Positions 576-41,398 of a stretch of DNA of 64,000 bases are shown here, piece after piece. Each line of letters begins with the position of its first letter. The first letter of the stretch is position 1. This stretch comes from Carcharhinus amblyrhynchos. Taxonomy: Eukaryota. The notes under the pieces are model-generated. The model saw only the letters and a program-made list of their open reading frames with translations, had not been told where the DNA came from and did no database searches. The translations under genes and the position numbers were made by a program. The DNA lies in assembly GCA_965287045.1 (NCBI GenBank), contig OZ336873.1, forward strand, positions 56,358,001-56,422,000, written 5' to 3'.

Positions 576-619
576 CAGCTCCTGGCTCCGGTTCCCTCCT
601 GTTACACGTCCGTCTTTAC
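576..619 (-). CDS. Gene A cytoplasmic exon (GKDGRVTGGNRSQEL)
   Basis: ttccag| acceptor and |gtaag donor on minus strand. 44 nt, phase 1 in and phase 0 out, in frame with the TM exon, no stop. Confidence 0.75.
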
Positions 620-649
620 CTGGAAATAAGTGAAATTTAATGATATTGA

Positions 650-755
650 AAGAAAAACGTTCTGATGATGAGTCTTACGGACCCGAAATGTTAATTTTGT
701 GTGCCTCTGCACAGGCGCTACTACAAGTGTTGTGCAGGATTTTCTGTTTTTCAAT
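650..755 (+). ncRNA. Hammerhead-ribozyme-like short repeat (minimal type I core, Penelope-associated)
   Basis: CTGATGA(662-668)-t-GAGTC-ttacg-GACCC-GAAA(685-688)-tg-TTA. Stem II has one mismatch. Followed by the family tail also seen at 28550-28680 and 41600-41705. Confidence 0.55.
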
Positions 756-1339
756 TCATTTTTCACGTCAGAGATTGCATACGTCCGAAATGGCCAGAAA
801 AATAAAAGCCCAAGATGATTTTCAATTTCGCAACGCGCGGAAAATAATTGAAATCCTTACCAGCAACAGGGTGCTTTAAAATATTTCGCGGAAACTCTCG
901 GAATACTTCGCATTCTTCGAGAAGGCGGGCAAGTTCCGAACATCAGTAGTGGTAATACTGCGTGACTGAGCAGGTCCGAGGAGCCATCTGGCCTACTAAT
1001 GCTACTGTTTCTTATGTAGCTCTGTGCACAACCGTTCCCGGAGTACAGCCACAGTTAAATCTAATTGTGACTCCACCGAGTAGCAGTTTGGAAACTAATT
1101 TTGCGTCAGAGTGTATTTCGTTCATCTGGTTCCGAAAGGAAATGTATTTGGGAACATCTAGATAACTGTTTAACGTTTATTATATCTCTCTATGTCCTAA
1201 AACATATTTTCAACAATTAGTGCTTCCTCAAAACCATACGACTCTTTTCAACTTTAACTACGAACTGTTCTTCCTGTTGTGTTCCCTGGAAACTATCAGT
1301 AGTCCCAAAGGTATGTACGAAAATCAAGTGTTATCTTAC

Positions 1340-1453
1340 CTTCATTCTTTAGCACTTGTTTCCGCCTCCTAATTACGATCGCAAGCACGAGGAACGACAA
1401 TCCAACCAGCGCACACACTGGAATCGAATAGTAATGTAATTTTGGGACATTTT
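1340..1453 (-). CDS. Gene A transmembrane exon (ENVPKLHYYSIPVCALVGLSFLVLAIVIRRRKQVLKNE)
   Basis: cttgcag| acceptor, G|gtaag donor, 114 nt phase 1-1. Hydrophobic ~20-aa stretch with no charged residue, followed by an RRRK stop-transfer signal. Confidence 0.88.
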
Positions 1454-1654
1454 CTGCAAGATTAATTGTGACATGAGGTAATAGTGGGTATTAACTTAAA
1501 AAAGGCTCCAAGACAGTTTATTATTTAAACCACTGCGATGGTTGCACTAACCCCGCACTGTTCAACGAAAATAGAACGTTTGAATAAAGCTTGTTTGCAG
1601 ATAAGTATCTGCAGGATCTTCTTCCTCCAATATTTGACGCATTATTGATTAGTC

Positions 1655-1915
1655 TACGAAGACTAAAAGACTGGAGTCACATGTAGGCCAGGCCGGGATA
1701 GGGTGCCTGATCTCCTTTCCTCAAAGTCATCAGACAGCCAGATAGGTTTTTTGCGTCTGAATTATAGTTTCATGACGCATTACTAAAACGAATGTTTACT
1801 TCAGTATTTATTAATTAGTTTTAACTGTCATGATGTGATTTGAACCGATATCCTTACAGCTTTAGCCTGCACCTCTTGAGTAATAGGCTCGTGGTATTAA
1901 AATCTCGCCACCATC
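1655..1915 (-). mobile_element. tRNA-derived SINE, degenerate
   Basis: Shares ggagtcacatgtaggccag...tttcct...tttgaacc blocks with the copies at 2480, 6935, 9395, 32995 and 38980. Confidence 0.55.
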
Positions 1916-2479
1916 TTCCCTTCGTAGTATGCCATTGGAGATAATGGGACAACACCCAAATGATTCACTCTTAATTGCCGCCTGAAAGGGCCCATCAAGC
2001 TACTCCGTTTAAGGGCAATTAGGTATTAACAATAAATGTTGGCCTAGCCAGCGACGTTCACATTCCTTGAAAGAGTTTACTTTCAAAAATTTAGTGAACT
2101 GGACGTACAGTGTTTTTACCGGTTACAGTTGAAATGAGATTTATGAGACTGGTTTCAGTTAAACCCATCATGATCTGTAAGTAGGATGAGAAGCTGGCTA
2201 TTTGGTTATTCCAAAACTCTGCACTGAACGTAATCGAACGCGTGACAATATCGGAAATCCCACGGCAATCAGTCCTTGCGCAAACAACGGGCCTTCAGAT
2301 CAAAGCAATAGTTTTCAAGCAAGAGGAGTTCGCAATGATCAAGTTTAAAGCATTTTCAACAAAATAAACAGAAAGTGAAAAAGACTAATAATATTCAGGT
2401 TAAGAACTATTACACTAGAAAATTTGAACGAATACTTAATATTGTTCCGTTAGAAATAGAGGAATTTGAAAGCAAATAC

Positions 2480-2850
2480 GTTTGGATTTTTGTTCTTATA
2501 TGGGATGTGAGCATTGCTCACGAAGCCAGCATTGCCCGTTCCCAATTGCCCCTGAACAAAATGGCCTGCTAGAAAGTTGCAGGGGGCAGTTAAGATTCAA
2601 CCACTATGCTCTGGCTCTGAAGTCGCATGTAAACCTGGCTGAGTAAGGAGGGCAGATTTCCTTCCCTGAAGGACATTCGTGAACCACTTTGTTTTTTTAC
2701 CACAATCGATCATAGTCATATGGTCAACATTACTGAGACTAGTCTGATATTCCATAGCTATTAATTGAATTATGTTTCCAGAAGTTGCTCTTGTGGGATG
2801 CGAATCCATGTCCTTAGATTGATTACCAGCCTGAGTGCATCGCTGCCTAT
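2480..2850 (-). mobile_element. tRNA-derived SINE
   Basis: ggcagatttccttccctgaaggacattcgtgaacc core; B-box-like remnant gggatgcgaatcc. Confidence 0.6.
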
Positions 2851-3019
2851 ATATATATCGATTTCAACACATTGCACTAAATTCAGTGTAAAGGCACTTC
2901 AATGTTTCTGTTGGTATTTCCCGTGACATTTCCGTGATTATTAATATACATAAAACTTGCGAAAAATTTCACAATGAATTCTACTGTAGGTGGCTTTCCT
3001 TTTAAAAGTTGCCCCCTAC

Positions 3020-3331
3020 CTTGGTTAGGTTGAGAAATCGTGAACGCCACAATAGCCGGAGTCTTGAGGGTGACATGAGATACCAGGCATGTATAATTGA
3101 CGTCTCTCGGTACAGGCTGATTCTCAAGCAAAGTGCTGGAAACTTCATACAGTCCGTCTCTGTTCTGCGTTTTATTGGTGTGTATTCCTGATGCAGTTTC
3201 GACGCCATTTTTATACCAAGTGAGGGTGTAATTTTCCGGATAAAATGCAGCCGTTTCACAGACGAGGATCAGAGGTGCAGGCGAATTCCCTTCCGTTGTC
3301 CTGGAGAAAAGATTCAGTGGGGTTGGGGCCA
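3020..3331 (-). CDS. Gene A Ig C1-set exon
   Basis: ctccgcag| acceptor, G|gtagg donor, 312 nt. VAPTPL...LVCETAAFYPENYTLTWYKNG...DGLYEVSSTL...YTCLVSHVTL contains the C1-set motifs CxxxxFYP, W and YxCxVxH. Confidence 0.93.
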
Positions 3332-4345
3332 CTGCGGAGCAGAAAGTGAACAAACTACTTTGCACGGTTTGGAAAACATAAATATACGTCTGACGTTCGG
3401 TTAATATTCTTACTCACTGGCAATTCCTATTTCCTGCATTTGAATATTACACACAAGATCAGTATAGATCTAATCCATATAAAGACCGGCATTCGATCAA
3501 TTCCAATATTTTTTGAATTCCCTGTCGGATAAGGTGAAGTGATTTGCTAATCAACGTTCTGTTTAAAGCGGCTAGAGAATTAAATCCTGATGAGACAGTC
3601 GTCTCGCTGAGTTCTTACGTGTTTAATGTACAATGACATAACAGAGAGTGACGAATAATATTTATATTATTGATGATGAAATGAGCGTTTTAATGCTCCT
3701 TTAAAGCCGCAGGTTGATATTTGATTAAATAAATTACTTTCAATTGAATGGAGAAGTTTCACCAACACGGTCTCTCTGTTAAATTATAGGCAAAATGCAG
3801 ATGCTGGAATCTGCAAAAGCCTCTCTGTGTTGTTTATTTATTTGAAAATTAGTGAACTGGCAGCCACGTATGTCGGAAACTCCAATCTGTTGAGTAAATC
3901 GATTTTGTCAACAGTTAAACATTGAGTATTTGAATACGCGCGGTATCGTACTTTGAAATTTACTTGAAGGAATACTGATATTCATAGACTATTAAAACTA
4001 AGCCAAAAGCTTTGTATATTTATCGTGGGAATGGCCCAGTAGTATAAAAGATTTTCAGTTAATTTTACTTTAGGAATTCATTCAGAATGCCACCAGTGTA
4101 AATCTGGTGCATGAATTGGCTTTATAGTTGTGATGTGTTTGATAAACATCACTAATATATTCGGTATACTCTGAGTGGCATTGTAGGTATAATTAGCATT
4201 TTTAATGCAGAGGACACGAATATACAACTACCTTATCGCGAAATATGTCCGTAGACATGATTTCACTGACAAAAAGTATGCACATCCCCGATTGTTGTGT
4301 TTGATATAATATGGCGATCTCCCTCGCCCTGTATTTCAATCTTAC

Positions 4346-4666
4346 CATGTACAGTTAGATTCGATCCGGTTCCATTTCGTTGACCTACTCCCTGACAGAT
4401 CACCGTACAGTGATAGATTCCAGAGTCTTGAAATGTCACATTTATTAAGCGAAAGAAACCGCTCACTTTATTTGCCATACCAAATATTTTTCTCTTGTCT
4501 GGGCTTGAATGCAGGAATTGGTTCTCACCATGTTTCCACCATAATACCCGTACCCAGGATTGGGATGGAAAAATGGGGAATATGCAGTAGAAGGTGATGT
4601 TTTCCCCTCTGGATACAATCGTTTCGACTGGTGCTTGAGACACACTGAACGAAGTGTCGTCCGCAG
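4346..4666 (-). CDS. Gene A Ig V-set exon with germline-joined J-like G strand
   Basis: ctgacag| acceptor, G|gtaag donor, 321 nt. VSQAP...GENITFYC...WWK...DSGIYHC...NGTGSNLTVH. Confidence 0.93.
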
Positions 4667-4820
4667 CTGTCAGAAAGACAGATAGAAACAGGTTAATTGC
4701 ATTAGGTACAACATAAATGTAGAAAAGTGAAGAGAGGAATTAAGTTACTTTAAATTGGTATGAAAATTACGTCCTCGGAAGTTATTAATTAAAGTAGCAT
4801 GGCAAGTGAAAAACTAGAAC

Positions 4821-4875
4821 CTGTATGAATAATTCCTCGGAGGATCAAGCACAGAAGTACCATGATCGTTGTCAT
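4821..4875 (-). CDS. Gene A leader exon (MTTIMVLLCLILRGIIHT)
   Basis: ATG at 4875-4873, hydrophobic signal peptide, 55 nt ending in phase 1 at acag|gttct. Same length as the gene B leader exon. Confidence 0.85.
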
Positions 4876-4949
4876 AATTTGCAAGGCTTCCAACTGTTGT
4901 CTCTGTAGGAACTGCGAATTTACAACTGTTAAAAATAGCTTGCTGTTAG

Positions 4950-5110
4950 TTTTCCTTCAGAGACGTCGCAGTGACGTTTAACATCCGGGAAGTGAGGTTT
5001 CAAAAACTACGCTTCCATTTTCAAGTGAGATTTTCTCATTTTTGCAACTACTTAGTTTCCTGGAATTACATGTTTTACTGGCAGCACAAAGCAAGGGGAA
5101 TTTAGATTTT
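4950..5110 (-). promoter_or_regulatory. Putative proximal promoter of gene A (ETS/GAS-like and CRE-like motifs)
   Basis: ACTTCCCGGA on the minus strand at 4984-4993 is identical to 36941-36950 upstream of gene B. TTCCTGGAA GAS palindrome at ~5057. TGACGT half-site at ~4972. Confidence 0.45.
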
Positions 5111-5149
5111 CTGAAACTGAATTTATGAACATTCTCCGAGTTGGTTTGT

Positions 5150-5900
5150 TTCCTGACAGGTAATGGTATTGTAATCACGCTGGACAGCAGAGAGGTTGTG
5201 AACGAAAATGAATTCAGAATACGCACCATGGTCATATTCAGACCTACTGTAATTAGGGACAGTTGTCTGGCTATTTTTATATTGCACAAGAGCTGGAGAG
5301 ACATGATCTGGGAGCTGACAACATATGCACTGTCTTCAGTGAGGACCAGAAGGTTGGGGATATGTTGACTATTTCCAAGGAGACCACAGTCGAATACGAG
5401 CGTTTTGAAAAGGAGTGATGACAATGATATCCATGGGCATAAAGTCGTCAGATAAGCCGTCTGTTAGCATGTTAGCTGTGATGGGGACTGAAAAAGTGGG
5501 CGACAAGTTGTTCATTCGCATGTAGGCTATGGCACAGAAAATGGTTCTTAGATAATACGTGTTTAGAGTGTGTTTGGGGAAGAAGACGAGAGGTATCTGC
5601 GTTACAGAGTTTCTCGGTTATGGTAGGATGCGGAGTAGCAATTTGGTTCGCTAGATAAATGGAAAGAAGGAAGCAGTAGAAATCATTGGCTGGAAGATAA
5701 TTTGATGACAAAGGATTCCTTGAACTTCTTGTAATATTCGCTAAGCCAGGAAGGTTGAGAGATTTAAGCAGAAGTTTTAGGGTTTGAGGATGGGTAGGGA
5801 GGATGAATGTGTGGGGTGGTGGTTTGTTTCTGATGAACATGGCAGTCGAGGTGCAGGGGAACAAATAATTACTTATCGTTGCTCTCCAGCACAATTGTCC
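5150..5900 (-). mobile_element. Ancient L2-like LINE reverse-transcriptase relic
   Basis: Minus-strand translation SLLFKTLVFDCGLLG...AYVVSSQIMS resembles the L2 motifs H.ILL.RL...GI.G and YADDxQxY; heavily decayed. Confidence 0.4.
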
Positions 5901-6934
5901 AGTAATGAGCATTGTGGTTGTGAACGGTAAGACTTTGGGAAGCTTCTCTTGATTTAACCAGATGAGCTCTGGATGGTTAGGCCAGTTGTTTGTAAGAGCT
6001 GATCAATCCTTTTGGAATTGAGAATGCGAAGGTTAATGTCATACCATTATTACAGTAATCATTCGAGATCGTGAGGCATTTATTTTGACTACGTGCGCTT
6101 ACCCTTTATATCCTTTCCTTTCTCAACAGATTTCCAAATTATTTCATTCGAGGAGTGCACTGCTTCCAATCTTTATCCCAGAAAAATATTTTGCTGCAAA
6201 GCTGTATAACCTGTTCGTCGTCACGGGAAATTGTCTTCGATAGTATTGTCGCAAGCTTCTTCTCAAAGTAATTTTTTGGATACAGTTATTCAACCAGAGA
6301 GCGTACTTCATTCTCAATGGTATCTCATGTCCAGCTCAGTAGATTATGAGTTGGATGCTCACTCCGGAGGATTCAACAATAAATCTGAACTGCAAGATAT
6401 AGCTCTGCTCGGCGAATGCTACCATATTAGAGACGTCGCATTTCAGATGAGGTGTTCAGTAGCCGCAACTGCTTTGCAAAACGATCTTTCTTTCTCCAGT
6501 GTTTGCTTCCTGTTTTTTTTCACCTTTCCATGTAACATTTGAATCTCGATGTGAATTGGATCACTTCGAAGATTAACTACTGCTATGGAGAGAACACCAA
6601 GGTGAATGGTGAAAAAACGAGATAAAATTGGCACAGCCATCAGAGAGAGCCAACCCTCTTAGTGTGAAGATGAGATTGGAAATGGGAGAGATTGTGCCCA
6701 GGTTCACAGAATTCAGTTGTGCAGACAAGCAGAAGACGCTGGGAACATTCTTTTCAGAACAGAAACAATGAAGAATAAATGTGATAATAGTATTCGAAAC
6801 TATGAGTAGTTTTAGAGAAGTAAATGGAGAAATTGTTTCTAGGATTTGTAAGGTAAACATGCACATCTATGATGATTAGCAAAGCAGTCAGAGGTGAGAA
6901 ACATTTATGGTCACTGCACTATATTCTCCCTTAT

Positions 6935-7265
6935 TCCTTCAGGGATGTTGATGTCGCAGGGAAGATCACCATTTGTTATTCATCCCGAATTGTCCTATCA
7001 GAGCATAGTCAAGAATCAACCATTTTGTTGTAGATCAGGAGTCACGTGCCGGCCAGACTGGACAATAAGACAAATTTCCTTCCCTAAGGGCATTACTGAA
7101 AAAAAAACACTGATAGTAGATTTAGATTCCGGATAAAATAGCTGCAGTCAAATACCGTAATAACTTAAATCCTAGCTGACGTGCTGGTATTGGATCCAAT
7201 GCTGCCAAATCGTTACAATCAGTCCTCTTAATTATTTGGTCAGCCATTAGCACCTAAGCCACCGT
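6935..7265 (-). mobile_element. tRNA-derived SINE
   Basis: ggagtcacgtgccggccagactgg...atttccttccctaagggcattactgaa core shared with the other copies. Confidence 0.55.
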
Positions 7266-8202
7266 CTTCGCACTCTGCACTGCTCATCCTGAGCAATGTT
7301 TGGCTAACATCAAACAAACGGATGCCAAAATGGCCTAAATACTTGACTGAAAAATGTGTTAATTGCAGCCTATCAAAGGAGCAGCGTTAAGAATTGAATT
7401 ATGTCGCACTGAAAAAAGTTGCAAGAGATAACACTGACGAGGAGAGAAAATGTGTGTGTTTATGTGAGACCGAGTTTCCACGAAATTTTAAAGCTGCCGT
7501 CCTGCATTTATGTGGTACCGGAACATTTTGGTTTATGCTGATATGGATCGAGTATTACATCTTAAGAAAGTGGATGTTTTGAGCAATAAACCACTAACCA
7601 GTAAGGAAAGGGAGAATATGTCTCCAAACCGTGGCTTGACCAAAAAAAGGCCCTTGACCAGTTGAAATTCACGATTATTACCTCGAAGGGAAATACGGGC
7701 ATATTTAACAGACCACAGAAAATTCAGAGGTAAAGGCGAACATTCAAAGATGAATAAAAGTGGGCATTTATAAGAAAGCAAGCACCAAATATATTGATAG
7801 AATTCTAGTTACCAACACTTAATAGTGAATGTTCATGTCAAATCTGTATGCATTAGCAGGACAAAAGAAATGGTGCTAACATAATCTTGATATTCTTTAT
7901 AGTTATCCAGTCAATTGCCTTTTCTGGATTTAAAAGCTTAATTAAAGTGTATAGTTCAATATCTAATCCTGGTACAAAAACAAATTAATTCTTGTTTACC
8001 GCGCGACATTTGCAGTGCGTTCCGATTTTCGGAAGTTGACAGAATTTTACCACAGGCCTTTTTTTAATTCTCGGTATTCCGGCTTTCTTTTTTTTTCTGC
8101 AAATTATTGTTAGTTTCATAATCACAAATGCAATGAGACTATCCTTTTGTAGCTTGGATTCATATGTTCTGAAGGATTTTCTGTTCAAATTGATGAATCC
8201 AT

Positions 8203-8427
8203 TTAACAAAAGGAAAAAACAGAATTATTGGAAACCAGACAGTTTAGTTCAGGAGACAGCCATAATTGTGGGACAATTAACAAAAGCAAAACCAGAATTA
8301 TTGGAAACGAGACAGGTTAGTTAAGGATACAGCTTTAATTGTGCGACAGTTAACAAAAGCAAAACCAGAATTATTGGAAACCAGACAGGTTAGTTCAGGA
8401 GACAGATTTAATTGAGCGACAATTAAG
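8203..8427. repeat. Minisatellite, 73-bp unit x3
   Basis: agaattattggaaac recurs at 8221, 8294 and 8367 (period 73); the whole unit is repeated with few substitutions. Confidence 0.92.
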
Positions 8428-9394
8428 GAATAATTAGTACATTGATAGAAATGCTAGGAATTCTGGAAACGTAATTTGGGAAAGAAAACTTTCTTTTATA
8501 ATTATGAACAAATCATTAACACTTGCTTATTAATACAGTTTCTTAAAGTGCTGTAGGAATAAAAATCGAGTGTACTTCTGAGGCCACAGAGTAAAAAGAG
8601 ATAATATGACGTGTTAATCTTATCTAGAAAGAATGAATAGGCACTTGATTAAAGAGATGTTGAAAGATGTGGGTCGCGAGGGAGAGAGAGAGCTTTTGAT
8701 GGATAGGCGTTGAGAATTATTTTCTAAGTTTTTCAGAGTGGTCACTTCAGAACGTGGCCTTTGAAGGGTGACAAAAAATCTCTTCAATAGTAAAGATAAC
8801 TCTCTCCTCTTATTGCTATTAACGAATAGCATATTGCTATTAATTACCAGCTTGCCTTTTATCTTTCTGACATTTTACTTTTTTCATAATTAATAAACAT
8901 TTTGTACTCGCCATTTAGAGTGACCCTTCTTCCAATATGGTTAAGTCTCTGGAATCTGATGCGATTTAAATGGGTAATAATTGCAAATAAGTGATCCCCA
9001 CAAATCTTAGATCATGTGAATAAAAAACATATAATACTGCCTCTGCTTGAAGAAGATTCTGGAGGATACAGGGAACGTCGGCTCTCTCTTGATTGATTGA
9101 GAATTGCGTTGCCTTTTTCTAAAAGGCTTTGAAATAAATTTGAGATTGAAGTCTCCAGACATATATATTTCGTGTGAAATCATTTATTTTGTATTGTACT
9201 CGACAACAGCTTGCACAACATCTCTCAGCATCAGATTGTTGACAGCGTACTTGGTGATTGTTGTTCCCACAACTATCTTGTTGTTTATTAAAAATGCTGT
9301 TAAAGTCAAAGCTTGTTGTGTTGATCGCAATAACTGCGACAATAGACGAGCAAAACTGACAGTGTCGGCAATATTGTTGCTATATCATTAATTC

Positions 9395-9690
9395 AGAAAC
9401 TCAGTTAAGGTTCTGGGGATCGGGGTTCGAATCCTGCCACGGCAGCTGGTGGACTTTGAATTCAATAAAACTTATCTGCAATTCAGAATCCACCGATGAC
9501 CATGAAACCATTGTCAATTGTTGGAAGAACCCATCTGGTTCACTAATGTCCTGTGGAAAAGGAAATCTGCGGACCTTTCCTTACATGATCTAGATGTGAC
9601 TCCAGAACGACAGCAATGTGGTTGACTCGCAACTGCTTCCTGAACAAGGCTGAAGCCTGGGCAATGTCCTACGAATTAATAAAAAAAAAA
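9395..9690 (+). mobile_element. tRNA-derived SINE
   Basis: B-box ggttcgaatcc at ~9424; ccatctggttcactaatgtcc core; A-rich tail at ~9680. Confidence 0.65.
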
Positions 9691-11194
9691 TTCTATGGTC
9701 ATTGTTCGCATCCGCTCCATAATATCCATTAACTGTAAGAAATAGAATTGCTCTGTGTCGGCACCCATGGATACAAAAGGACATATAGTTGTGTTGTAAC
9801 AACTTGAAAACTATTTAATATTATCACAAACTGGGGTTTGGTGACTTGAAAGAAACATACGTGGTTTATGTCATATTCTTCTCGACACACCTTATCTGCG
9901 AGATCTCCCTCTCCCTTTCCTGGCAGTTCTTAGGATCACACGGTGATAACCGTCGATATTACGTCGTTATTGCGGCTGACATGTCGAAAGTAATTATCTG
10001 AATATATTCTTTGTTTTTTTTTTAAATGAAGATGTTTATTTTTCTTCATAGTTGAGAAACTGAGTAGGATGCATAGATATAGCCAAAAGCCAATTGAATG
10101 TAGAATCACAGGCACAAATTCACTCAGTTATACATTTTATACCTTTCCTGTGACCAAAGTCTACCCAACTAACTAAACAATTAAAACAGGCATGAAAACA
10201 AAACCCAACCAAAATGGGAAAGACATAAAGTGCACAGGGCCTTAAACTGTTTAAGTTTAAACCCCATGGCCTACTTAAAAAACAACTGTTACTGCAGCGT
10301 AACACGGCATTTCTAATTTTTGAGAGGTGTCCATTACCCTGCCACACAGCAGACAACGGCACTTCTTTTCGCAGTGATTACGTTTCAATCAGGTAGGCTT
10401 AACTTTGGTATGAAATAAATGCAGCGCATCTCTGCCTCGCCCAATGCATGTCTGATAACTATTTGTATTTTGCGTTCGGCTTTCAAATAACTCTTTGTTA
10501 ACCAAACGCCTACACCTACCTAACGACGTGAGCCCAGGTTTTGTGTCTCAAATGTTTACGTGATGCTTTCAAACAAATGCACAATTCATTTTGGACATTA
10601 TAATTACTGTTTTGGAATGGGTGCCAAGACCAGCGGTCCTGAGATTCGTTTTTAGTGCTCACAAAACGTTTAACTATATTTCAAGTGATTCCTGATACTA
10701 GAACTACCGCCATTACCGTCAGACGTGGAATAAAATTCAGCATTAATCTCACTGTAGTCACAGCATGATATGCCTCTCATCAGTGTTACCGGGAACTCGT
10801 TAATATTTTCAGAATAACAGGCTCTCTATTAATGTTTTAGATCCCGAGACCATGAAAAGGTAGCTCAACTCTATCTAACATTTCTAAATATTCCGGACGT
10901 TCCGAGATTCCAGGGTTGCTGGAGTAGTGCTTAACCTGATTCCACTCTGAACATTCAAGTGTTCTATTGGAGTATTGTTCTTTCAAAACTTGCCAGAAGT
11001 GCCACGGAGACTTTCCATGCTTAATAAAACTGATGTGGCGCCGTTTCTCCCAAATAATCCACAATACACATTTGTGCTTTGTTTTTATATACCGGTACTT
11101 TCTTCCACTAACCAACGCGAGTAATACTTCCAGCAGTTCTAATTACAGGCGTTTTGCTTTTTTATGGGCTCTTACGATCTTCCAGTGAGCAGTT

Positions 11195-11345
11195 TAAGTA
11201 TCAATCATGGCGCAGTTGACAACAGTTCCACCAGTGATTCAGAAGGTTTTTAGTTCAAGTCGCACTGCAAACATCAAGGCTGACACCACAGTACAGTTCT
11301 GAAGGAACGATTCAGAGTTGTATCTGTTGCCTTTCGGACGCAACT
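11195..11345 (+). mobile_element. DeuSINE-like relic
   Basis: tcagaaggtt...ttcaagtc...aggctgacacc.cagtacag.tctga...cctttcgga pattern recalled from Deu-domain SINEs. Similar relics at ~6320-6460 and ~41790-42060. Confidence 0.4.
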
Positions 11346-12115: not shown

Positions 12116-12117
12116 AT

Positions 12118-30269: not shown

Positions 30270-30375
30270 TTGCACATCCCGAACAGGTGCCGGAGTGTGG
30301 CGACCAGGGGATTTTCACGATAACTTAATTGCCATGTTAACGTAAGACTACCTGTGACACTAAGAAATGAACTAA
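30270..30375 (+). repeat. SINE 3' tail fragment
   Basis: ggtgccggagtgtggcgac..ggggattttcac...cctgtgacactaa, recalled as a common chondrichthyan SINE tail. Confidence 0.4.
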
Positions 30376-31275
30376 AAAAATTCTTAATATATAAATGCCA
30401 CTTAATTTAGATATTGTTTGATTCCTTCAGGAAAACTTCACACTTTCTCATGTTGGTTATATATTGCTCTGCTTTAACTGGTAAATGATTCATTATTGTT
30501 TATAACTGGGTAGATTGGTACACGGAAGTAGCTAAGAATGATCTTTGCTATGCCTTCCTCAACTCTATTCCACGATTGAGCGTATAAATTAAAATCCTAC
30601 TCACTTCGTAACAGCTCATGTCCCATTTGTGTCGTTTGCTTTGTGGCACCACAATATTGTACCTCAGTGGAAAGCACCAGTTTGAACCACCTGATGCCAA
30701 TCTTATTGCGATCTTAAGGTTGACTGATTGTTGAAAAATAAAGCAAGTGTTTCGGTATTTGGTCCAAGCTGTGTTTTGTAAAAGTACTGGCACAGTCAAC
30801 TGATTCGATAGGGCATTTACGACTTAAAAGTTGAAAGTGGTAAATTCGATGGTGAGGAATGTTTCAGGACTGGTCGTTATGTTTCGTGCTCTGAATGAAT
30901 CTTCTACAGTTTTCCAATTTGCGAATATATCTGCAAACTAAACAAAAAGAAAGCAGAAGTGCTTTCTGTCTATCAACCTGTCTATCAAAATGACAGGCTA
31001 CAAAATAATTCAGTGGTAGAAATGAATATGTAAAGATAAAGATGGGCGGTCTAGAAATGTACTACTCAAAGCCAACTAGCGTAATGATCTACTAATTGTA
31101 TTGGACCCATGTTTCTGATATTTTAATTTGAATGTTGCGAAACTAAGAAGAGAACTTGCGCAATAACATTTATCCCATTCATCCTATTGTGGCGATACGG
31201 CAATGTTTCATAATGTGACTAAATCGGTGGTGCCGCGGAGATATATGCGCTTACAATCCTTTCGCTTTAGAGTTA

Positions 31276-32545
31276 AGAACATAAGAACATAAGAAATAGG
31301 AGCAGGAGTAGGCCATCTAGCCCCTCGAGCCTGCCCCGCCATTCAATAAGATCATGGCTGATCTGAAGTGCATCAGTTCCACTTTCCCGTTTTCTCCCCA
31401 TAACCCTTAATTCTCCTGTCTATCAGAAACCTATCCACCCGTGACTTAAATATATTCAGCCAGGGAGCCTCCACCACTTCAACGGGCAGAAAATTCCAGA
31501 GATTCACCACCCTTTGAAGAAGTTCCTCCTCAACTCTGATCTAAACTGACCCCTCCCCCACCGCCCCCCCCCCCCCCCAGCAATCACCCCTCCCCCCCAA
31601 CCCCCAGGATCTTGAGGCTGTGTCCTCTAATCCTGCTATCCTTTCTAAGCGGGCAGAATCTCTCTACCTCTACCCTATCCATCCCCTTCATTATCTTATA
31701 CGTCTCTATAAGGTCTGCCCTCATCCTTCTAAACTCCAACGAGTTCAGACCTAGTCTATTTAGTCTCTCTTCATAATCCAATCCCCTCATCTCCGGTATC
31801 AGCCTAGAGAACCTCCTCAGCACTCCCTCCAAGGCCAATATATCCTTCCGCAAGTGCGGCGACCAAAACTGCACACAGTACTCCAGCTGCGGCCTCATCA
31901 GTACCCTGTACAGTTGCAGCAAGACCTCCCTACCTTTATATTCTATTCCCCTCGCTATAACGGCCAACATTCCATTCGCCTTCTTGGTTACCTGCTGCAC
32001 CTGCAGACTGGGTTTTTTGCGACTCTTGCACAAGGACGCTCAGCTCCCTCTGCATCGTAGCATGCTGCAGCTTTTCGCCTTTTAAATAATAATCCCTCCT
32101 ACTATTATTTTTTCCAAAGTGGATAACGTCACACTTGCTAACATTATACTCCATCTGCCAGGTCCTCGCCACTTGCTAAGCCTATCCAGATCTCTCTGCA
32201 GACTTTCCACACCCTCCATGCAATTTGCTTTTCCACTCATCTTTGTGTCATCAGCAAATTTCGTCACCCTACACTCAGCCCCCTCCTCCAGATCATCAGT
32301 ATAAATTGTAAATAGTTGAAGCCCTATCACCGATCCCTGCGGCACTCCACTAGTCACCAACCGCCAACCAGAATAGCACCCATTGATACCAACTCTCTGC
32401 TTCCTATTAGACAGCCAATCCTCTATCCACGCTAACACCTTGCCCCCAACTCCGTGCACCCTAACCTTCTGTAGCAACCTTCTATGAAGCACCTATCAAA
32501 CGCCTTTTGGAAATCTAAAAACACCACATCCACCGCTTCCTCTCT
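31276..32545 (-). mobile_element. Young 5'-truncated CR1 LINE
   Basis: ORFs 31584-32492 with GVPQGS and KFADDTK; (aagaacat)n tail. Confidence 0.93.
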
Positions 32546-32994
32546 GTCTGCCCCTCTGTCCAGAGTTCGGGTCAGGAAGCCTCAGTTCTCTTCGTGCTAT
32601 TGTTAATATTAAGTCGTCCGGTAAAACTCGCTGCCAAGCAGCCATGTACCATAAACCGTGTATCGGTTATGAAGAAATTCGCCGTAAATCCAATGATATC
32701 AGTCACAAGAAACAATAAGCCAATTGGCAGTTTTCTGTCCTAGTGCGAGAATGGACTTTCGCAAGAGAAGCGTACTCGCGTTCTTGCCACTGAAGTTGCG
32801 CCACTAACAGAACACTAGCCTGTTGTTACCTGTCCGAAGAATTGCAAAAACTGTGGTTGCGCAATGTTTGTGCGACTAGCCTCAATCCAACGAATTTTGC
32901 TGGAAATCTGAGGTGGAGAATTTGAAATCAGATTTAAAAATACAACTAGCAACATGATTTGGAAATGTATGTTTCAAGCAAACTGTTGGCTTTT

Positions 32995-33360
32995 TAATGT
33001 TTGGATGCGGGTGTCGCAGGCTGAGCCTTTGCTAATTACTCTTGAATTGGATGGCATGCCAGGTCGTTTCTGAGGGCTGTTTAGAGTCAACCATATTGTT
33101 GTAGACATCAGATCATTTACACGAAAGCGGGTAAAGGCGGCAGATTTACTTCTCTAAATGCCATGAGTGAACCAGAAGAGGTTTACAACAACCAACAATG
33201 AATGGTTTCATGGCTATCGTTCCAACTTTAATTCTAGATTTCCTTTAATCATTTAATTCAAATTGACTTCATCGGCTGCGCTCCAATTCGAACCCTGGTC
33301 CTCGGCACATTATCCTGGGTCTCTGGAATACGAGTGGCAATACTACAGCCCAGTTTGCTA
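32995..33360 (-). mobile_element. tRNA-derived SINE
   Basis: ggcggcagatttact...gtgaaccaga core; attcgaaccc B-box complement. Confidence 0.6.
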
Positions 33361-33739
33361 TCCCTGTTCCCCCCCCCCCCCCCCCCCTGTAGTGGAAGCG
33401 TTTTGGCAATCATCTTTCTGTTACAGAAACATACGTGGCCTCTGGACTATATATGACCCCAGTCCGAAACTATTATGGTGGACTCTAATCTGTCCTCTGA
33501 AAAGGGGAAGTAACTTAGAGCGTTGTAACAAAACTTCAGGGAGAACAGCACGTGCCTCAAGACAAAGCAATGAGCCCAAAGCACTAGCAAAACGAAGATG
33601 GAAACCTACTCACTAAATGTCAGTAAACCTCCTGTTTCAAAAATGAAGCAGTTTTATTTGAAACAAATTTGCACACTTTTCACCCGTTGCTCTTCTGATC
33701 TTGAAAGTGATTCAGGTCAGTGTTCTTTGACGCCATTAG

Positions 33740-34160
33740 GCCGCGTACTCCATTCAACCTGACCGAACTAACCGTTCTACATCCCTGTGTCCCAATAGAG
33801 AAAGGAGAAGTCTCTTAAAAATCAGAGGCGACTCTTGGCTTTATACTATATACAGAATACACGGCAAGGATGGCACCTTTATAAGGAACCAGTTTGGCGT
33901 CAGCTGAAGTGTTACGTTCCAATCTGCACACCACGTTTTACAAAGGATGCTCAACGCGCAGAGAGGTTGCAAAACGGATCTAAAGGAATAGTAGAATAGG
34001 ACGATATGGGGTCGTCAGTTGTAAAGAAAGATTGCAAAAGCTGGAATCATTCCCCTTAACGTTGAGGGGGTTAAGAGGAGATTTGCTAGCTGTCTTCCCA
34101 ATGATGAACAGTTTTAATAGATTAACTGAAGTGACACTATTGCAGAAAAGTCGGTAACCA
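33740..34160 (+). mobile_element. Ancient CR1 3' relic
   Basis: Decayed RRLRGDL motif (ttgagggggttaagaggagatttg). Confidence 0.45.
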
Positions 34161-36170
34161 GAACATAAGAACATAAGAAATAGGAGCAGGAGTAGGTCAT
34201 CTGGCCCCTCGAGCCTGCACCGCCATTCAATAAGGTCATGGTTGATCTTTTTGCGGACTCAGCTCCACTTACCCACCTGTTCACTATAACCCTTAATTCC
34301 TTTACTGTTCAAAAAATTATCTATCCTTGTCTGAAAAACATTTATTGAGGTAGTCTCAACTGCTTCACTGGGCAGGGAATTCCACAGATCACAACGCTTT
34401 GTGTGAAGAAGTTCCTCCTCAATTCAGTACTAAATCTGCTTCCCCTTATTTTGAGGCTATGCCCCCTAGTTCTACTTTCACCTGCCAGTGGAAACAACTT
34501 CCTTGCTTCTATCTTATCTATTCCCTTCAAAATCTTATATGTTTCTATAAGACCTCCCTTCATTCTCCTGAATTGCAATGAGTATAGCCCAAACTACTCA
34601 GTCTTTCCTCAAAAGCCAACCCTTTCAACTCCAAAATCTACCTAGTGAATCTCTGCACCCCCTTCAGTGCCAGTATATCCTTTCTCAGGTAAGGAGACCA
34701 AAACTGTACACAGTACTCCAGGTGTGGCCCCACCAGCACCTTATGTAGCTGCAACATAACCTTGCTGTTTTTAAACTCCATCCCTCTAACAATGAAGGAC
34801 AACATTCAATTTGCCTTCTCAATTATGTGCTGCACCTACAACCCAGCTCCTTGAGATTCCGGCATAAGGACACCTAGGTCCCTCTGCACAGTAGAATGTT
34901 GCATTTTTTTACCATTTAAATAATAGTCCATTTTGCTTTTATTCCTATCAAAATGGATGACCTCACATTTACCAACATTGTCCTCCATCTGTCAAATCCT
35001 TTCCCACTCACTTAGATTATCTATATCCCTTTGTAGACGTTCAGCGTCCTCTGCACACTTTGCTCTTCCACCCATCTTAGTGTCATCTGTGAATTTTGAC
35101 ATGCTGTACATGGTCCCCAAGTCCAAATCATCCATGTAAATCGTAAACAATTGTGGTTCTAACAGTGATCGCTGAGGCACACCACTAGTCACCAACTAGA
35201 AAAACAACCATTTATCCCCACCCTTTGCTTTTGGTTGGTTAACCAATCCTCTTTCCATGTTAATACATTACCCGTAAAATTGTGCACGTTTATCATGTGT
35301 AACAATTTTTGGTGCGGCGCCTTGTCAAATGCCTTCTTGAAATCCAGATACACCGCATCCACAGGTTCCCCATTGTCCACTGCACATATAATGTTCTCAA
35401 CGAATTCCACCAAAATAGTCAATCATTACCTGCCCTTTATGAACCCTTGCTACGTCTTACCAATGGAACAATTTATATCCAGAAGTCTCACTATTTCTTC
35501 CCTGATGATAGATCCAAGCATTTTTCCCACTACCGAAGTTAAGCTGACCGGCCTATAGTTACCTGCCTTTTGTCTACCTCCTTTTTTAAACACTGGCGTC
35601 ACATTTGCAGTTTTCCAAACTGCGAGAACCACCCCAGAGTCCAGTGAATTTTGCCGTGTGCATTTGCTATTTCTCCCACCATTTCTATTAGTACCCTGGG
35701 ATGCATTCCATCAGGACCAGGAGATTTGTCTACTTTTAGTCCCCATTAACTTGCCCAACACTATCCCTTTCATGATAGTGATAGTTTCTCTGTTCTCACC
35801 TGCCATAGCCTTGCTGTCATCAATTTTTGACAAGTTATTTGCATCTTCCATGTGAAGACTGACAGAAAATACTTGTTCAATGCCTCAGCCATTTCCTGTT
35901 ATTGCATCCCCCTTATCGGGTGCTAAAGGACCAATGTTTACTTCAGCCATTCTTTTTCTTTTTATATATTTGTATGAATTTTTTCTATCTGTTTTTATAT
36001 TCTGAGCTACTTTACTCATAATCCATCTTACTTTTCTTTATAGCTTTTTTCGTGGCTTTCTGCTGACCTTTCAAGATTTTCCAATCCTCTAGGTTCCCAC
36101 TAATCTTTGCCACTTCGTAAGCATTTTCTTTCAATCTGATACCCTTCTTTATCCCCTTAGATATCCATGG
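34161..36170 (-). mobile_element. CR1 LINE, ~2 kb, 5'-truncated
   Basis: WKTANVTPVFKKG...NYRPVSLTS, YLDFKKAFDK and KFTDDTK; agaacataagaacataag tail. Confidence 0.9.
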
Positions 36171-36899
36171 AGACATGGATATCGGAGGACAGAGGTTTAA
36201 AGGAACAGCACAAGGTCAGAGATATCTGACGTTTGGAGTAGAAATATCCTACACCTTAATCCTGTCCCCCGATTAACAAAGGTTAGTCCAGCTCAAATGT
36301 TGCCAGAAGCACGACTCATAATATCATGCTAGCTTTTTGATTCAGATCGACTAAATCGACACAAAGCAGGAACCTACCACAGGCTGAATGTCTGGTCCTT
36401 ACTTCATTAAAGTATCATTTCTCTTTGCAAACATCTGAATGAGTGTCATTTTCCTCTGCTTCTCCTCGCAGCTCCATGCGCAGCTATCACTAAAAGTTTT
36501 CGTGAACATTCTTGGCTGCTGGACTGAAGCACGTGGATTTGGGCCAAAATTTCAGCTCTGGCTGAATGAAGCTAAAATTTGCCCCAGCAATTCTGGTCTA
36601 GAGAAAGACAGATGAGCAGGATGATTAATCCGAATTGCTATTCCTTAGATTTTTGCGAGAATTCTGAATGCCCGGAGGCTGGTGGAGATCTGGGTGGCAC
36701 TTTGCTCAGTGCACCCACGAACACTGCCTACCCTCTTGCACGAAGACAACCTCTTGGATGAGATGCTACAGAATTGCCCAGTCCTGCGGTCTGAATCGAC
36801 ATTTGGAGGAATGTGAAAATGATCAATGGTAGGTGTTGACGAATAAGATTATTAGAACATAGGGATACAGCGATACAGGAGCAGGTGAAATAGCATTGC

Positions 36900-37115
36900 T
36901 TTTCGCACGGAAACTTCGAACGCTTAGGAGGAGACCTCCAACTTCCCGGACTCTTACCATGACTGACCACAATACACAACTTTAGCCATGTGACATCTCG
37001 TGTCATGGTCACACATTCCGTTTCTTTGTACATGAAATCGATTTCTTTGCCAAATCATTCAAGGCATCGTTGCTATTTGCTGCGAGTTGCAAACTTTTAT
37101 TCTTCAATTTACAGC
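36900..37115 (+). promoter_or_regulatory. Putative proximal promoter of gene B
   Basis: ACTTCCCGGA at 36941-36950 (shared with gene A); RUNX-type ACCACA at ~36966. Confidence 0.45.
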
Positions 37116-37170
37116 ATGTCGCTGAAAACTGCAGTTCAGTGTATGGTTCTTCTGTGGATGGTCTGGACAG
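37116..37170 (+). CDS. Gene B leader exon (MSLKTAVQCMVLLWMVWT)
   Basis: ATG 37116, signal-peptide-like, 55 nt, phase-1 donor acag|gtact. Confidence 0.85.
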
Positions 37171-37369
37171 GTACTGTTGCGTGTTATATGTTGACATTCA
37201 GAATACCTTTTTTTCTATTTAAGAATACACGCAAAGATTCTACGTTACAAATTAGATGCGTTACAGCTCCAATTCGATCGTTGGTGATTCTTAACTGTCC
37301 TTGTACTTTACTTATCTTAGTTTTTGTTTTCTTTTGACGCATGCAGTTTACCGCCGCTCTTTTTTATAG

Positions 37370-37675
37370 GTGTGAAAATAACGTGGAGCAAAGTGGATCA
37401 GTTCCCTAAACATTTGACGGTTGCTAGGGGTGACAATGTTTCCATGTTCTGCACATTTCCCATGCTTGAAAGCGCTCCTGAAGTTTCTTGGTGGAAACGG
37501 GGCGAGGAATCGTTTCTGGAACCAGACAACAGAAAGAAAATTTATCTAAAGAAAGGCAGTAGTTCATTTGAAGTTCTGAATGCGAGTGTTGCAGACTCTG
37601 GAATGTACCACTGCTCAGTAAAACATCAACATAATAAGATTGGGGATGGAAGTGGCTCCCGGCTCACCGTGTGTG
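37370..37675 (+). CDS. Gene B Ig V-set exon with germline-joined J-like G strand
   Basis: tttttatag| acceptor, G|gtaag donor, 306 nt. VDQFP...GDNVSMFC...WWK...DSGMYHC...GDGSGSRLTVC. Confidence 0.93.
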
Positions 37676-38979
37676 GTAAGTATCATTGTACCGGGGGAAG
37701 GTCGCTTTTCAGCTGTGTGTGTGATTTGTGTAATTTGAACTTCTATCACTGGATGAAAATCTGGATTGGTTTTTCGCTGCTGGAATTCCTTTTCTATTGA
37801 CCTCCAGGTTCAACGGCCTGTCTCCTGATTCGCACCATTGCCGAAGATCAGTTTCACCCACTCCCTGACTATCCTCGTGACATTCCAAAGTGTTTTTCAT
37901 CCAACCAGTGCCGTTGGTTCAGTTGTAATTGTTACTGAAAAATCATACTGAAATAAAAAGATCGCATCAACTCTGAGATTGAGATTAATCAATTGGATGA
38001 GTTGCTCGATTTTCTTGTCACCGAAACATCAGTACCTAAGTGCAAAAAATGCAACAATTTTAACACGGCCTCTGTCAAATCTTTTGTAACCTATTAACTC
38101 ATGTCATAGGTCCCACAATTTACCATTGTTAAAAGCTCGACAATGTTAATCCCTTCTCATTGCTCTCAAAATGTCACGCCCCAGCTAACTTTTGAACTCC
38201 CTGCTTTATATTGCCAAACTATTACTTTTTAAGCTGAATTTTCCAAATTTGATTTGAGAAAGATTCGTGTACATGCGTATGAAGAGGTTGGTGTTAAGTC
38301 AGACACATCAAGTTGAGGTCTATCCACCAAAATGTAACTGAATTTCAAAGCAACCTAGAGAGAAAGAAAGGCCTAATCCTGTTCCTATGTTGGCACTCAA
38401 CGCTGCACTTTCATGTCAGTTGATAACCATGTTTGAGATGCCTAATCTTCACTGAATATTCATACAATGAATATCAGAGGGCACACAGTGATCTTAACCT
38501 CAGTGTTGCTTTTCAACAAAAGCCCTGGGATGTACAGGGCAGTGAAGATATCAATTGCCTATTTTGAGACCCTTTGGCGTCAGCCAGTTGGGTTTCTCAA
38601 AACCAATCATTCCAGACAGGCTATCACCGAGCGTCCATGTGTATTCCTAGTGTTCAATACGTTTAAATCAGGATTTCTATTTAAATTCCTCAAACCTGAC
38701 ACGGAAGTTACAACAAGACAGCACAGAACAATATCCTCATACGCTTGCACAGATAATCATTACCTATTGCAGCTAAAAGAAAATCTATGGTTTTAAAAGA
38801 TGCAGGCACTCTGAATCGCTAGGAGTAAAGGTTAACATTGTCTTGAAGTTAAAAATTAACTGTTTAATATTAGGGTATATAATGAAAAATTTTCGTAATA
38901 AAGCCAGATACGTTATGACAGTCGATCTAGCTGACACAATTAGTATGAACTTTCTATTCATTTGCGGGTTTTATTCATT

Positions 38980-39240
38980 TATTAGCTGGGCCAACATTTA
39001 CTGCCCATCCCGACTCCAGAGGGAATTTGAGATCAATCATAGGCCAGGTAAGAATGGCAGATTTCTTTCCTGAAAGGAAAGCATGGAACCAGATGGGTCG
39101 CCACTCCAATCGACATTGGTTTCATGGTATTACCAGACGTTTATTGAATTCAAATTTCACCATCGAACTGTGGGCTTTGAAACCAGGTCCCCAAATCTGG
39201 CTCTGGGTCTCTCCAATGACAACAGCACCACGCCACTGTC
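38980..39240 (-). mobile_element. tRNA-derived SINE in the gene B V-C1 intron
   Basis: ggcagatttctttcctgaaagg...gaaccagatggg...ttgaattcaaattt core. Confidence 0.6.
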
Positions 39241-39806
39241 GTTCTGTAAACAACTGTTTGCAGATTTTAATCCATACATTTATAATCAACATTTATAATG
39301 CCTTTATTGACATGAGAGATATTTCGGCGATTCATAGTTTTCATAGTCATAGAATAACATGCATGGTAATAAAAGAAATAATCGAACATTAACTAATATT
39401 GATGTAGGCACGCAAAACAATATACGGCAAGTAGATAATGCCAAAGAAAGAGGACTTCATTGCTCCGTTCTGACTGCGTTCCGCAGTCATTTGCATACAC
39501 ATAAAGATGAATTGCGTTCGGGCCGTCGCTGCTAAATACTTCGCCAAGACCTGATGTTTCCTTTCAATGTCGCTTACCTCCGTGTATGTCAACAATACTG
39601 GGAGATTCAGCCCAACTGTTTACGATACATCCGCATACTTTGCAGTGCGCCGCTAAATTATTTCTAAAATGAATACAAACGCGATGTTTAAGAAATCACT
39701 GAGCGAATAACTATCTCCACTGTAAGAATATAACATAATTGATGCGGCATACAAATGCCATTGTGTTCCTTTACATTAAGATTTACCTTCTATTTCCCTA
39801 TTAAAG

Positions 39807-40103
39807 TTCCCCCAGCCCCCCTGAAACTCGTTCAGGTTGAAGGGTTTTCAGCGACTTCTCTGAGGTTCGAGTGTAAAACGGCTGCCTTTTATCCAGAGGA
39901 TTTAAAAATCTCTTGGCTCCGAGATGGTGTGGAAATTCTGGCCGGAATACAAACTGTGAGAACCAAGACAGAGGATGGTCTTTTTGAGGTCACCAGTTCT
40001 TTGGAACAAGCACAACCTGTCCCGAACCGAATAGTTTATACATGCCTGGCATCTCACATTTCCCTTAAGGTGCCCGCCAGTGTCAGCTATATCGCCATTC
40101 AAG
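39807..40103 (+). CDS. Gene B Ig C1-set exon
   Basis: ttaaag| acceptor, G|gtaag donor, 297 nt. VPPAPL...CKTAAFYPEDLKISWLRDG...DGLFEVTSSL...YTCLASH. Confidence 0.93.
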
Positions 40104-41294
40104 GTAAGATTGGGCACATTGCAGCAGCGAGTGATGCGTTCGAACTATAGTTATTTATTAAACATTTAGCAGGGCAGCTGTTCAAACACAAAGTTGTAGG
40201 GTGAGTGTGGACATTCTTTAATGCCAATGCCATATCAATGGAAATGAATTAAAATATCTAAGATGGTTTGTAACTGCAGGAGAGGGAATGTTTCCCTAAA
40301 AAGGTCTGAAACGGGAGGCCGATGTGGGAGCTGCTCAAAACTGAAAGCTTACTTGTTATCAAATTCTTGCCAAATGAAATGAACCTACACATGAAATGGA
40401 TCAGTTTAGTCAATCTCCCTTTAATTGGGCAATTCCTGCGTGGAACTTTAGTCAACGATATCGTTCAAGGACATTTCCTCCATGATCCAGATCCTTTTGA
40501 CCATCATGAAACTATTTCTCTTTGATCCAAAGGCTTAACTTCGGGGGGAAAAATGCTCTTCCTGTATTTACATCATTCGTTGAATTACTCTCCTCATATT
40601 TCCACTCAAAATGCGAAGGCATTAAAAATGCTTCCAAAACTCCTCTGGTTGCAATTTTGGTTGCGCACCCTTTACTCCAATAAACAAGACTCTATTACAG
40701 TTATTAGCACTGTGGGTGTAAACTTTAAAAATGAGGAAACTACGGTGCAAATACAGAGAGTTTGGCGCTTGATCGGTGTTCTGGTGAGAGTGCATCTGCC
40801 ATGAGAGAAACGAGCCAAGGTACCAAACTGAATATCAGAATCCGAAAGCATAACTTTCGTACTAATGAAGTTAGCCATGCGGGAAGATCACAACCTGATC
40901 GTCAGCGAGTTAAATTGTGATCGCTGAGGGCAGTGTTGTGTGGTCGAGTAGTACTGTCCCACGTTATTATTATAGGGTCCAGAGGGGCATTTCTGTTTTT
41001 TCCTACAGAGCCAAAAATATTTTTAAGCCATTTGTTTGGCGCCGGCACCAAGCACCAGGCTGTCTTGGAAGATGGAGTGCATTATGTTAAAATGTTCACA
41101 TGGCGCTCAATTTGCGGAGCGTCCTTTGGGGGTATTTTCTGTTCGATTGACTTTGGAAATTTAATATCGGTCACAAAGTTTGGAGCAGCAATTTTATGGA
41201 CCTCTTTCATGTCTAGAAGCCAGTACTACTTGGTTTCATTCAATAATTCGTATGTACAGAAAATTTATGTGCATATTTTAATCTTGCATTGTAG

Positions 41295-41398
41295 ATAACA
41301 GTTTCCGGAACGTGATGATTTCACGACATGTTCTGAGTTTTTTGATAATTCTTGGATTGCTGGCTATAATTGTGGACCATGTTATATATTTCAATTGA
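41295..41398 (+). CDS. Gene B TM/terminal coding exon (DNSFRNVMISRHVLSFLIILGLLAIIVDHVIYFN*)
   Basis: ttgcattgtag| acceptor in phase 1 with the C1 exon. Hydrophobic core preceded by Arg. TGA at 41396-41398, then ag|gtaagg donor at 41401. Not in the ORF track. Confidence 0.8.

Follow-up and report, generated by a model that had tools for sequence, protein, structure and literature searches.

The window analysed here (64,000 nucleotides of the Carcharhinus amblyrhynchos genome, C4:56358001-56422000; positions without a chromosome label count from its start) contains two genes, A and B, of a family of about 55 non-rearranging membrane proteins, in which a variable (V) domain with a joining (J)-like end is encoded by one VJ exon and is followed by a C1-set domain and a transmembrane (TM) segment. 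[quoted passage not shown] The observations that carry this reading are the exon structures, the tail motifs, the TM arginine together with a conserved stop codon, the size of the family, the near-identical ectodomains found on opposite TM types and the presence of two zeta-family adaptor genes. As judged from sequence, the family is likely to be a receptor system, so far undescribed, that serves as brake and accelerator of immune cells in sharks.

Structures of Genes A and B

A six-frame motif search located both genes at the positions given in an earlier note, written from the letters of the window, and the exon models give them the common exon plan (55-nt leader, V, C1 and TM) proposed there. 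All introns are GT-AG and of phase 1 through the TM exon, and the frames are open; the splice models are based on splice sites, on comparison with paralogues and on RefSeq predictions. Pfam assigns V-set domains (5e-7 and 2e-9) and C1-set domains (6e-12 and 3e-8) to genes A and B, respectively. The J-like ends, GTGSNLTV in gene A and GSGSRLTV in gene B, lie inside the V exon, and a search of both genes for recombination signal sequences found none. This arrangement rules out a rearranging immunoglobulin (Ig) or T-cell receptor (TCR) gene and agrees with the non-rearranging VJ-C1 structure claimed earlier. All five sequence motifs that had been described as private to the two genes are present in both, but they are family-wide, the WW-type motif occurring in 53 of 55 V exons.

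Inside the window gene A has an open frame of 282 residues (partial). It has the uncharged TM segment, the RRRK sequence and the further cytoplasmic coding sequence that had been predicted, the latter comprising a 44-nt exon and two exons outside the window. A scan to the left of the window for inhibitory tyrosine motifs, as the earlier note had suggested, located ITIMs 137-592 bases beyond its edge. With these two exons, the whole protein has 359 residues and a tail of 102 residues. The tail motifs VHYAAL, LIYSRV and TEYAQL correspond to two ITIMs and one motif resembling an immunoreceptor tyrosine-based switch motif (ITSM), and three such motifs were reached in only 4 of 20000 shuffles of the tail. 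In its last exon, gene A has 93% identity to P0001, a RefSeq model from Mustelus. The middle tail exon is predicted only, because the Mustelus model skips it and the Heterodontus and Heptranchias models keep a homologue. Four sequencing runs over gene A are uninformative on splicing because they cover introns and exons alike and no splice joint is present among the joints listed. The AlphaFold model of the V domain (pLDDT 92.6) has a compact V-type Ig fold. Fold searches with it tie among VNAR, CD79b, NKp30, TCR and NCAM, with no single family standing out, and searches of the PDB with this V domain or with a profile of 15 V sequences gave generic Ig matches only.

Gene B has an open frame of 253 residues in which, as had been claimed, an Arg is present at the N terminus of the TM segment (in ISRHVL) and almost no tail follows (7 residues). 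Its stop codon is located two bases ahead of a splice donor. The same in-frame stop is present in six of six B-type paralogues, in two of them after in-frame deletions, and therefore it is not an assembly error; two genes of the second cluster described below end in the same way. The likely last exon, beyond the stop, resembles the coding tail of the Heptranchias Arg-TM model P0003 (tblastn, E 2e-4).

Genes A and B are 42% identical in V and 48% identical in C1 and belong to different subfamilies. They are transcribed divergently, as described earlier, but a distance of 32 kb, containing LINE (long interspersed nuclear element) fragments, separates their start codons, and a common bidirectional promoter has no support across this LINE-rich spacer. 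The head-to-head junction is part of a three-gene cassette (A, B, B') that is repeated three times and accounts for three of seven head-to-head junctions. The claim that A and B are themselves a matched activating/inhibitory pair does not hold, because they are of different subfamilies and the near-identical, opposite-type partners of each lie elsewhere. LINE-type fragments with endonuclease and reverse-transcriptase-like open reading frames occupy window positions 13920-35192, 49700-51850 and 56500-63760, and a 73-nt tandem repeat is present at 8209-8426.

Table 1. Exons of genes A and B and candidate adaptor exons
Feature	Position	Strand	Basis or remark
Gene A leader exon, 55 nt	4821..4875	-	exon model; two sister genes have paralogous leaders upstream
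Gene A VJ domain in one exon, with J-like end and Cys-Cys spacing of 59 residues	4346..4666	-	exon model, Pfam, AlphaFold
Gene A C1-set exon	3020..3331	-	exon model, Pfam, PDB search
Gene A TM exon, uncharged, with RRRK as stop-transfer	1340..1453	-	exon model
Gene A first cytoplasmic exon, 44 nt	576..619	-	exon model
Gene A middle tail exon (VHYAAL), outside window	C4:56357863-56357795	-	match to tails of shark relatives
Gene A last tail exon (LIYSRV, TEYAQL, stop), outside window	C4:56357572-56357408	-	match to tails of shark relatives
Gene B leader exon, 55 nt	37116..37170	+	exon model
Gene B single-exon VJ domain	37370..37675	+	exon model, Pfam
Gene B C1-set exon	39807..40103	+	exon model, Pfam
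Gene B TM exon, Arg at outer end, stop 41396-41398, then splice donor	41295..41400	+	exon model, paralogues
Likely last exon of gene B, untranslated (past stop), end undefined	42176..42313	+	inferred splice
CD3zeta-like TM exon	C15, L181:1501-1587		Cys and Asp near outer end
FcRgamma-like TM exon	C189, L182:1507-1596		Cys and Asp near outer end

Family Size, TM Classes and Tails

A genome search with the C1 domain of gene A gave at least 130 matches, with 150 of 542 candidates scored, and a search with its V domain gave 59. The C4 catalogue, built from DNA fetched around these matches so that its counts are a lower bound, holds at least 57 C1 exons, of which 55 have a V exon upstream; several broken genes are included. 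One C1 exon is at 51.3 Mb, 30 are at 55.41-56.60 Mb (cluster 1) and 26 are at 64.03-65.11 Mb (cluster 2). The J-like motif is found in 41 of the 55 V exons. Among the 53 V exons measured, the spacing between the two Cys ranges from 54 to 59, compared with 63 in shark NCR3 and 60-66 in SIRP.

By manual reading of the TM exons, the 57 genes comprise three groups: (i) 15 genes whose TM core has an Arg at its outer end; (ii) 35 genes with a neutral TM segment; and (iii) 7 genes for which no TM exon was found. Behind 25 of the 35 neutral genes there are ITIM-like tail exons, so that these genes, like gene A, combine the neutral TM segment and ITIM tail of an inhibitory form. Such exons follow only two of the 15 Arg genes, both of which have an in-frame stop in the tail. 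Absences of ITIM exons are soft because 5.5-41 kb of downstream DNA was examined per gene. The features of an activating form, a charged TM segment, a short tail and a genomic adaptor with immunoreceptor tyrosine-based activation motifs, are likewise present. The Arg is held by three TM types. An old type is found in gene B, g64608, g64659, g64767 and Callorhinchus P0022, and the other two differ from neutral sisters by a Gly-to-Arg change (WISRC from WISGC and WSRG from WSGG).

Matched Ectodomains on Opposite TM Types

The V domain of gene B is 95-96% identical to those of three minus-strand neutral-TM genes 0.4-0.9 Mb away, two of which have full ITIM tails, and the V domain of gene A is 89% identical to that of the Arg gene g56219. 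In the V+C1 tree, which contains 52 genes (48 labelled) after two genes without V and three broken genes were left out, the Arg form is scattered over the ectodomains: the 15 Arg genes require 14 changes of label, compared with a mean of 13.0 after shuffling, and at least eight of these are forced by the starred branches. Among eight independent pairs, the Arg is accompanied by loss of the tail 5.7 times, and the reverse association occurs 0 times (median p 0.03).

Twin genes include g56236 (ITIM) and g56293 (Arg), which share a 1.8-kb V-C1 block and have only three base differences in V and four in C1, and g64496 and g64608, which have two base differences in V. Gene g64608 matches g64496 over more than 4.6 kb to beyond C1 but matches g64659 at 92% around the TM exon, and it is likely a chimera. 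The clusters thus contain near-identical ectodomains on inhibitory and activating halves, the arrangement that distinguishes paired receptors.

In subfamily B2, all three Arg genes are nearer in the V exon to an ITIM gene (9, 5 and 18 differences of 300) than to another Arg gene (37, 29 and 37), whereas the C1-flanking intron has the opposite trend (49, 53 and 49 differences to the ITIM gene and 8, 21 and 8 to the Arg gene). The discordance is significant (Fisher p 1e-8 or less, for sisters picked from the tree). Because the V exon is nearer the ITIM gene while the intron is nearer the Arg gene, these sequences indicate gene conversion of the V exon in B2; the pooled V ratio of nonsynonymous to synonymous differences (pN/pS) is 0.91. 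The gene B subfamily is different. Comparison of the gene B V domain with its partners gives pS of 0.19-0.21 and pN of 0.02, and this V domain is under purifying selection, which would fit a conserved ligand. Recent conversion of gene B by its ITIM partners was rejected on the basis of this pS and the lack of a V/intron discordance.

Distribution among Cartilaginous Fishes

Named V-C1-TM relatives are known from sharks, rays and a chimaera, 17 species in all; their names are all automatic and include SIRP-like, NCR3LG1-like, tapasin-like and CD276 homolog. These matches bear out the suggestion of a chondrichthyan paired-receptor family that has merely been auto-labelled. Among 20 proteins looked up, 18 are chondrichthyan, one is a pig SIRP and one is unnamed. 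The family C1 domain was found in 118 proteins, 84 of them with a TM segment (23 Arg-class and 61 neutral). In this set of predicted, non-independent models, the Arg class has a median tail of 29 residues with six loose motif matches, whereas the neutral class has a median tail of 98 residues with 40 such matches.

Both TM classes are present in Callorhinchus (P0022 on one side, P0029 and P0031 on the other). Diversification of the family likely predates the shark-chimaera split, because the Callorhinchus V domains fall into several sub-lineages of the V tree. The next profile matches outside the family are multi-VJ proteins of turtle, lizard and snake, in ITIM or Arg-TM forms without C1. These reptile proteins (P0038-P0053, P0109, P0164 and P0185) have unrelated automatic names and may constitute another undescribed paired family.

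Proposed Mechanism

Long-tailed members such as gene A would damp the leukocyte via phosphatases at their ITIMs, with recruitment of SHP-1/2 expected by analogy. Tailless Arg-TM members, of which gene B is one, would have the activating role and would associate with FcRgamma or CD3zeta, through an Arg-Asp contact in the membrane that is again proposed by analogy. The family Arg is level with the adaptor Asp, with mostly 16-17 residues between it and the inner end of the core, and an Arg-Asp coupling rule is stated for NKp46 and NKp30 (PMC6514059). The sequences suggest that activating members arose repeatedly, either through the joining of an ectodomain to an old exon of the Arg-TM type or when Gly was replaced by Arg and the tail decayed, and that partners may be kept matched by V-exon conversion (B2) or by purifying selection (the gene B subfamily). 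By analogy with other paired receptors, expression would be on natural killer (NK)-like or myeloid cells, where inhibitory members would read a self ligand and their activating twins would counter pathogen mimics. A wider proposal is tentative and in our view rather doubtful: in cartilaginous fishes the family would be the principal germline receptor complex of NK/myeloid cells and would predate the shark-chimaera split, it would be formed of a single antigen-receptor-like VJ-C1 chain signalling through the zeta-family adaptors that the TCR uses, and it would thus be a living, still-diversifying relative of the chain that was split by RAG.

Several points weigh against the assignment of paired-receptor function. 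For transcript, protein, ligand and cell type alike, the family is known here from genomic sequence and predicted models. Ten of the 35 neutral-TM genes have no ITIM exon in the 5.5-41 kb examined, and the gene B partner g55448 showed only a non-canonical Tyr exon. Four genes classed as neutral (g55852, g56251, g56322 and g56544) carry an Arg on the outer edge of the TM segment or close to it, and three of them have ITIM exons; if these four are counted as Arg genes, the ITIM split becomes 5 of 19 versus 22 of 31. Across species, the loose motif is matched by 6 of the 23 Arg-class models, and the automatic Arg/neutral rule misplaces a few models. The sisters that indicate conversion in B2 were chosen after the tree was seen, and gene B itself shows no recent conversion.

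Relation to Known Receptor Families

The family could be the chondrichthyan branch of a named VJ-C1 group, either PRARP or Xenopus VJC1, and as such might already be in the literature. These are non-rearranging VJ-C1 chains that resemble an Ig light chain or TCR chain, PRARP has ITIM/ITSM tails, and the shark genes have the same combination of a non-rearranging VJ-C1-TM structure with ITIM/ITSM motifs. To our knowledge, no large Arg/ITIM paired expansion of PRARP or VJC1 exists. A whitefish V-C1 protein and the reptile multi-VJ proteins, in both ITIM and Arg-TM forms, match the family profile, but their domains have no supported grouping with the family in the V tree. The literature searched for a shark VJ-C1 paired family contained no description of it, although an earlier mention is possible, since several key papers and supplements were outside its coverage. 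In PMC10751288, PRARP and "several VJ-C1-type genes" are named in tetrapods, the group is known from bony vertebrates and PRARP is linked to the major histocompatibility complex (MHC). A genome search for MHC class II beta gave no match; the NCR3-like gene, used as a proxy for the MHC, is on C9, and the family is on a different chromosome, C4. We consider a branch of PRARP/VJC1 unlikely.

That these genes are the SIRP family of sharks, moved to another locus and enlarged, having one C1 domain rather than two and inhibitory members that read a CD47-like self signal on phagocytes, is distinctly improbable. The resemblance is nevertheless considerable, in that both have a germline VJ and C1-set ectodomain, multiple spaced Tyr motifs in the inhibitory members, a charged TM segment in the activating ones and a tandem cluster. 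SIRPalpha is the best PDB match of the gene A C1 domain and forms the ESM Atlas clusters nearest to a full-length member (0.97), and a pig SIRPbeta1-like protein is the first named non-shark V-C1 match of the family profile. The approximately unbiased (AU) test did not reject a family+SIRP V clade (p 0.446), nor did it reject a grouping with NCR3 (p 0.432). However, the family has a single C1 exon per gene instead of the V-C1-C1 plan, numbers about 55 genes and forms its own V and C1 clades (support 84/96 and 98/98, respectively). The check by V and C1 trees proposed earlier thus gave separate clades but did not place a sister group. In SIRPbeta1, a central TM Lys pairs with DAP12, whereas the Arg of the family is at the outer end of the TM segment. 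The human SIRP locus adjoins NSFL1C, and a gene for a SEP protein that we take from its sequence to be NSFL1C-like is on C16, away from the family. A search of the genome with pig SIRP found no V match and 18 weak C1 matches, 10 of them in this family and none on C16. In domain plan and locus the family thus departs from SIRP. PMC13262535 places SIRP at Tetrapoda.

The short-tailed Arg-TM genes might instead be decaying copies or decoys without a signalling function. The clusters do contain broken genes (g64911, g65011 and g56051) and Arg genes with decaying tails (g64197 and g64292), but Callorhinchus, Mustelus and Heptranchias all retain the type of Arg-TM exon found in gene B, the gene B V domain is under the strong purifying selection described above and the frames are intact, and we regard this explanation as very unlikely.

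That the proteins are ligands of the B7H6/NCR3LG1 type (V-C1 with tail Tyr motifs), with the Arg incidental, is suggested by the naming of several RefSeq models as NCR3LG1-like or CD276 homolog and by C1 domains of the same general type, but it is highly improbable given the J-like ends of most V exons, the separate clade of B7-like V domains in the V tree, the coincidence of Arg and tail loss, and a separate multi-C1 B7H6-like cluster at C6 28.71-29.01 Mb, 0.8 Mb from an intron-containing RPS13. B7H6 has a B7-type V domain without a J motif and a locus beside RPS13, and B7H6/NCR3LG1 orthology is excluded on the same grounds. An intronless RPS13 copy is present on C13.

The paired-receptor reading also has to be set beside systems that share single features with the family. 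NKp30 also has its VJ in a single exon, ending in a similar G-x-G-[TS]-x-L-x-V, and an Arg-type TM segment that couples to FcRgamma/CD3zeta, but NCR3 lacks C1 and the V domains are in separate clades. The genome has its own NCR3 candidate, a V exon at C9:110357706-110358029 (-) with NKp30 as its best PDB match (4e-9) and a relative named NCR3-like, and NCR3 orthology is ruled out by this separate gene and by the presence of C1. By locus, the genes are orthologues neither of B7H6, the case that would have refuted the earlier note, nor of NCR3. The NITRs, which are known from bony fish only, have a V-like I domain as the second domain, whereas Pfam assigns the second domain here to the C1 set, which rejects NITR identity. 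The likeness to NITRs is that of a large, clustered, diversified VJ family with activating and inhibitory forms and birth-and-death evolution, as described in PMC7916673. Shark UrIg and UrIg2 also join a non-rearranging VJ to C1 domains (PMC12227049), but they have several C1 domains, are antibody-like and lie in the MHC or an antigen-receptor complex; UrIg-like C1 domains are in a different clade of the C1 tree. CD300A/CD300C, Siglec and KIR receptors likewise have matched ectodomains on opposite signalling halves that are kept alike by conversion (PMC12447643), but their domain plans are unrelated and none is VJ-C1. To judge by its sequences, the family would function like the SIRP/NITR/KIR-type paired receptors but fails those features of SIRP, NCR3, B7H6 and NITR that could be tested.

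Of all living groups that possess Ig, TCR and MHC, that of the sharks is the oldest, and we know of no large activating-inhibitory Ig receptor family of the KIR/LILR/NITR kind established in them. A 2024 list of joined-VJ genes names CD79, NITR, SIRP, CD8, NKp30 and PRARP and contains no such family (PMC11599192). With about 55 genes per genome and matched twins, the family would allow NK-like or myeloid cells of sharks to be marked directly and would make self/non-self tuning testable in these animals. It adds a large single VJ-C1 family, extending from chimaera to rays, to the debate on the gene invaded by RAG, outside the chromosomes now invoked. It also presents two modes of pair matching, conversion and purifying selection, within one cluster.

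Chromosomal Surroundings and Additional Exons

C4 has five cadherin and two C/EBP genes at 0.9-24 Mb, which we take for the set found on human 16q/19q12-13, and at 74.9 Mb it has an AGTR2-like gene; GPI falls on an unplaced contig. Cluster 1 is flanked on the left by exons presumed to be AMFR-like, to which Pfam and ESM Atlas gave no name, and on the right by a GST exon. A tandem cluster of eight G protein-coupled receptor genes is present at C4:43.55-43.71 Mb, the one tested being closest to the leukotriene B4 receptor. About 50 near-identical tandem C1-set exons at C9:83.8-96.4 Mb probably represent an Ig or MHC-like array.

Within the clusters, decayed inhibitory TM and tail exons (C4:56310592-56312735), with a stop ahead of the TM segment and the Tyr lost, are located 16 kb behind the Arg gene g56293. 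Extra B-type ITIM tail exons are present at C4:55510822-55512294 and 55961703-55963262, with no V or C1 exon in the DNA fetched. The V exons at C4 64070-64317 kb and 64766 kb form a subfamily without the J-like G-x-G motif, and inverted V exons at C4:64172839, 64226795 and 64264321 (+) have no C1 within 10 kb. Gene g56129 and models P0083, P0089 and P0115 represent a single member conserved from Callorhinchus to rays, whose juxtamembrane part is rich in Cys and whose basic tail lacks Tyr and contains C-x-x-C.

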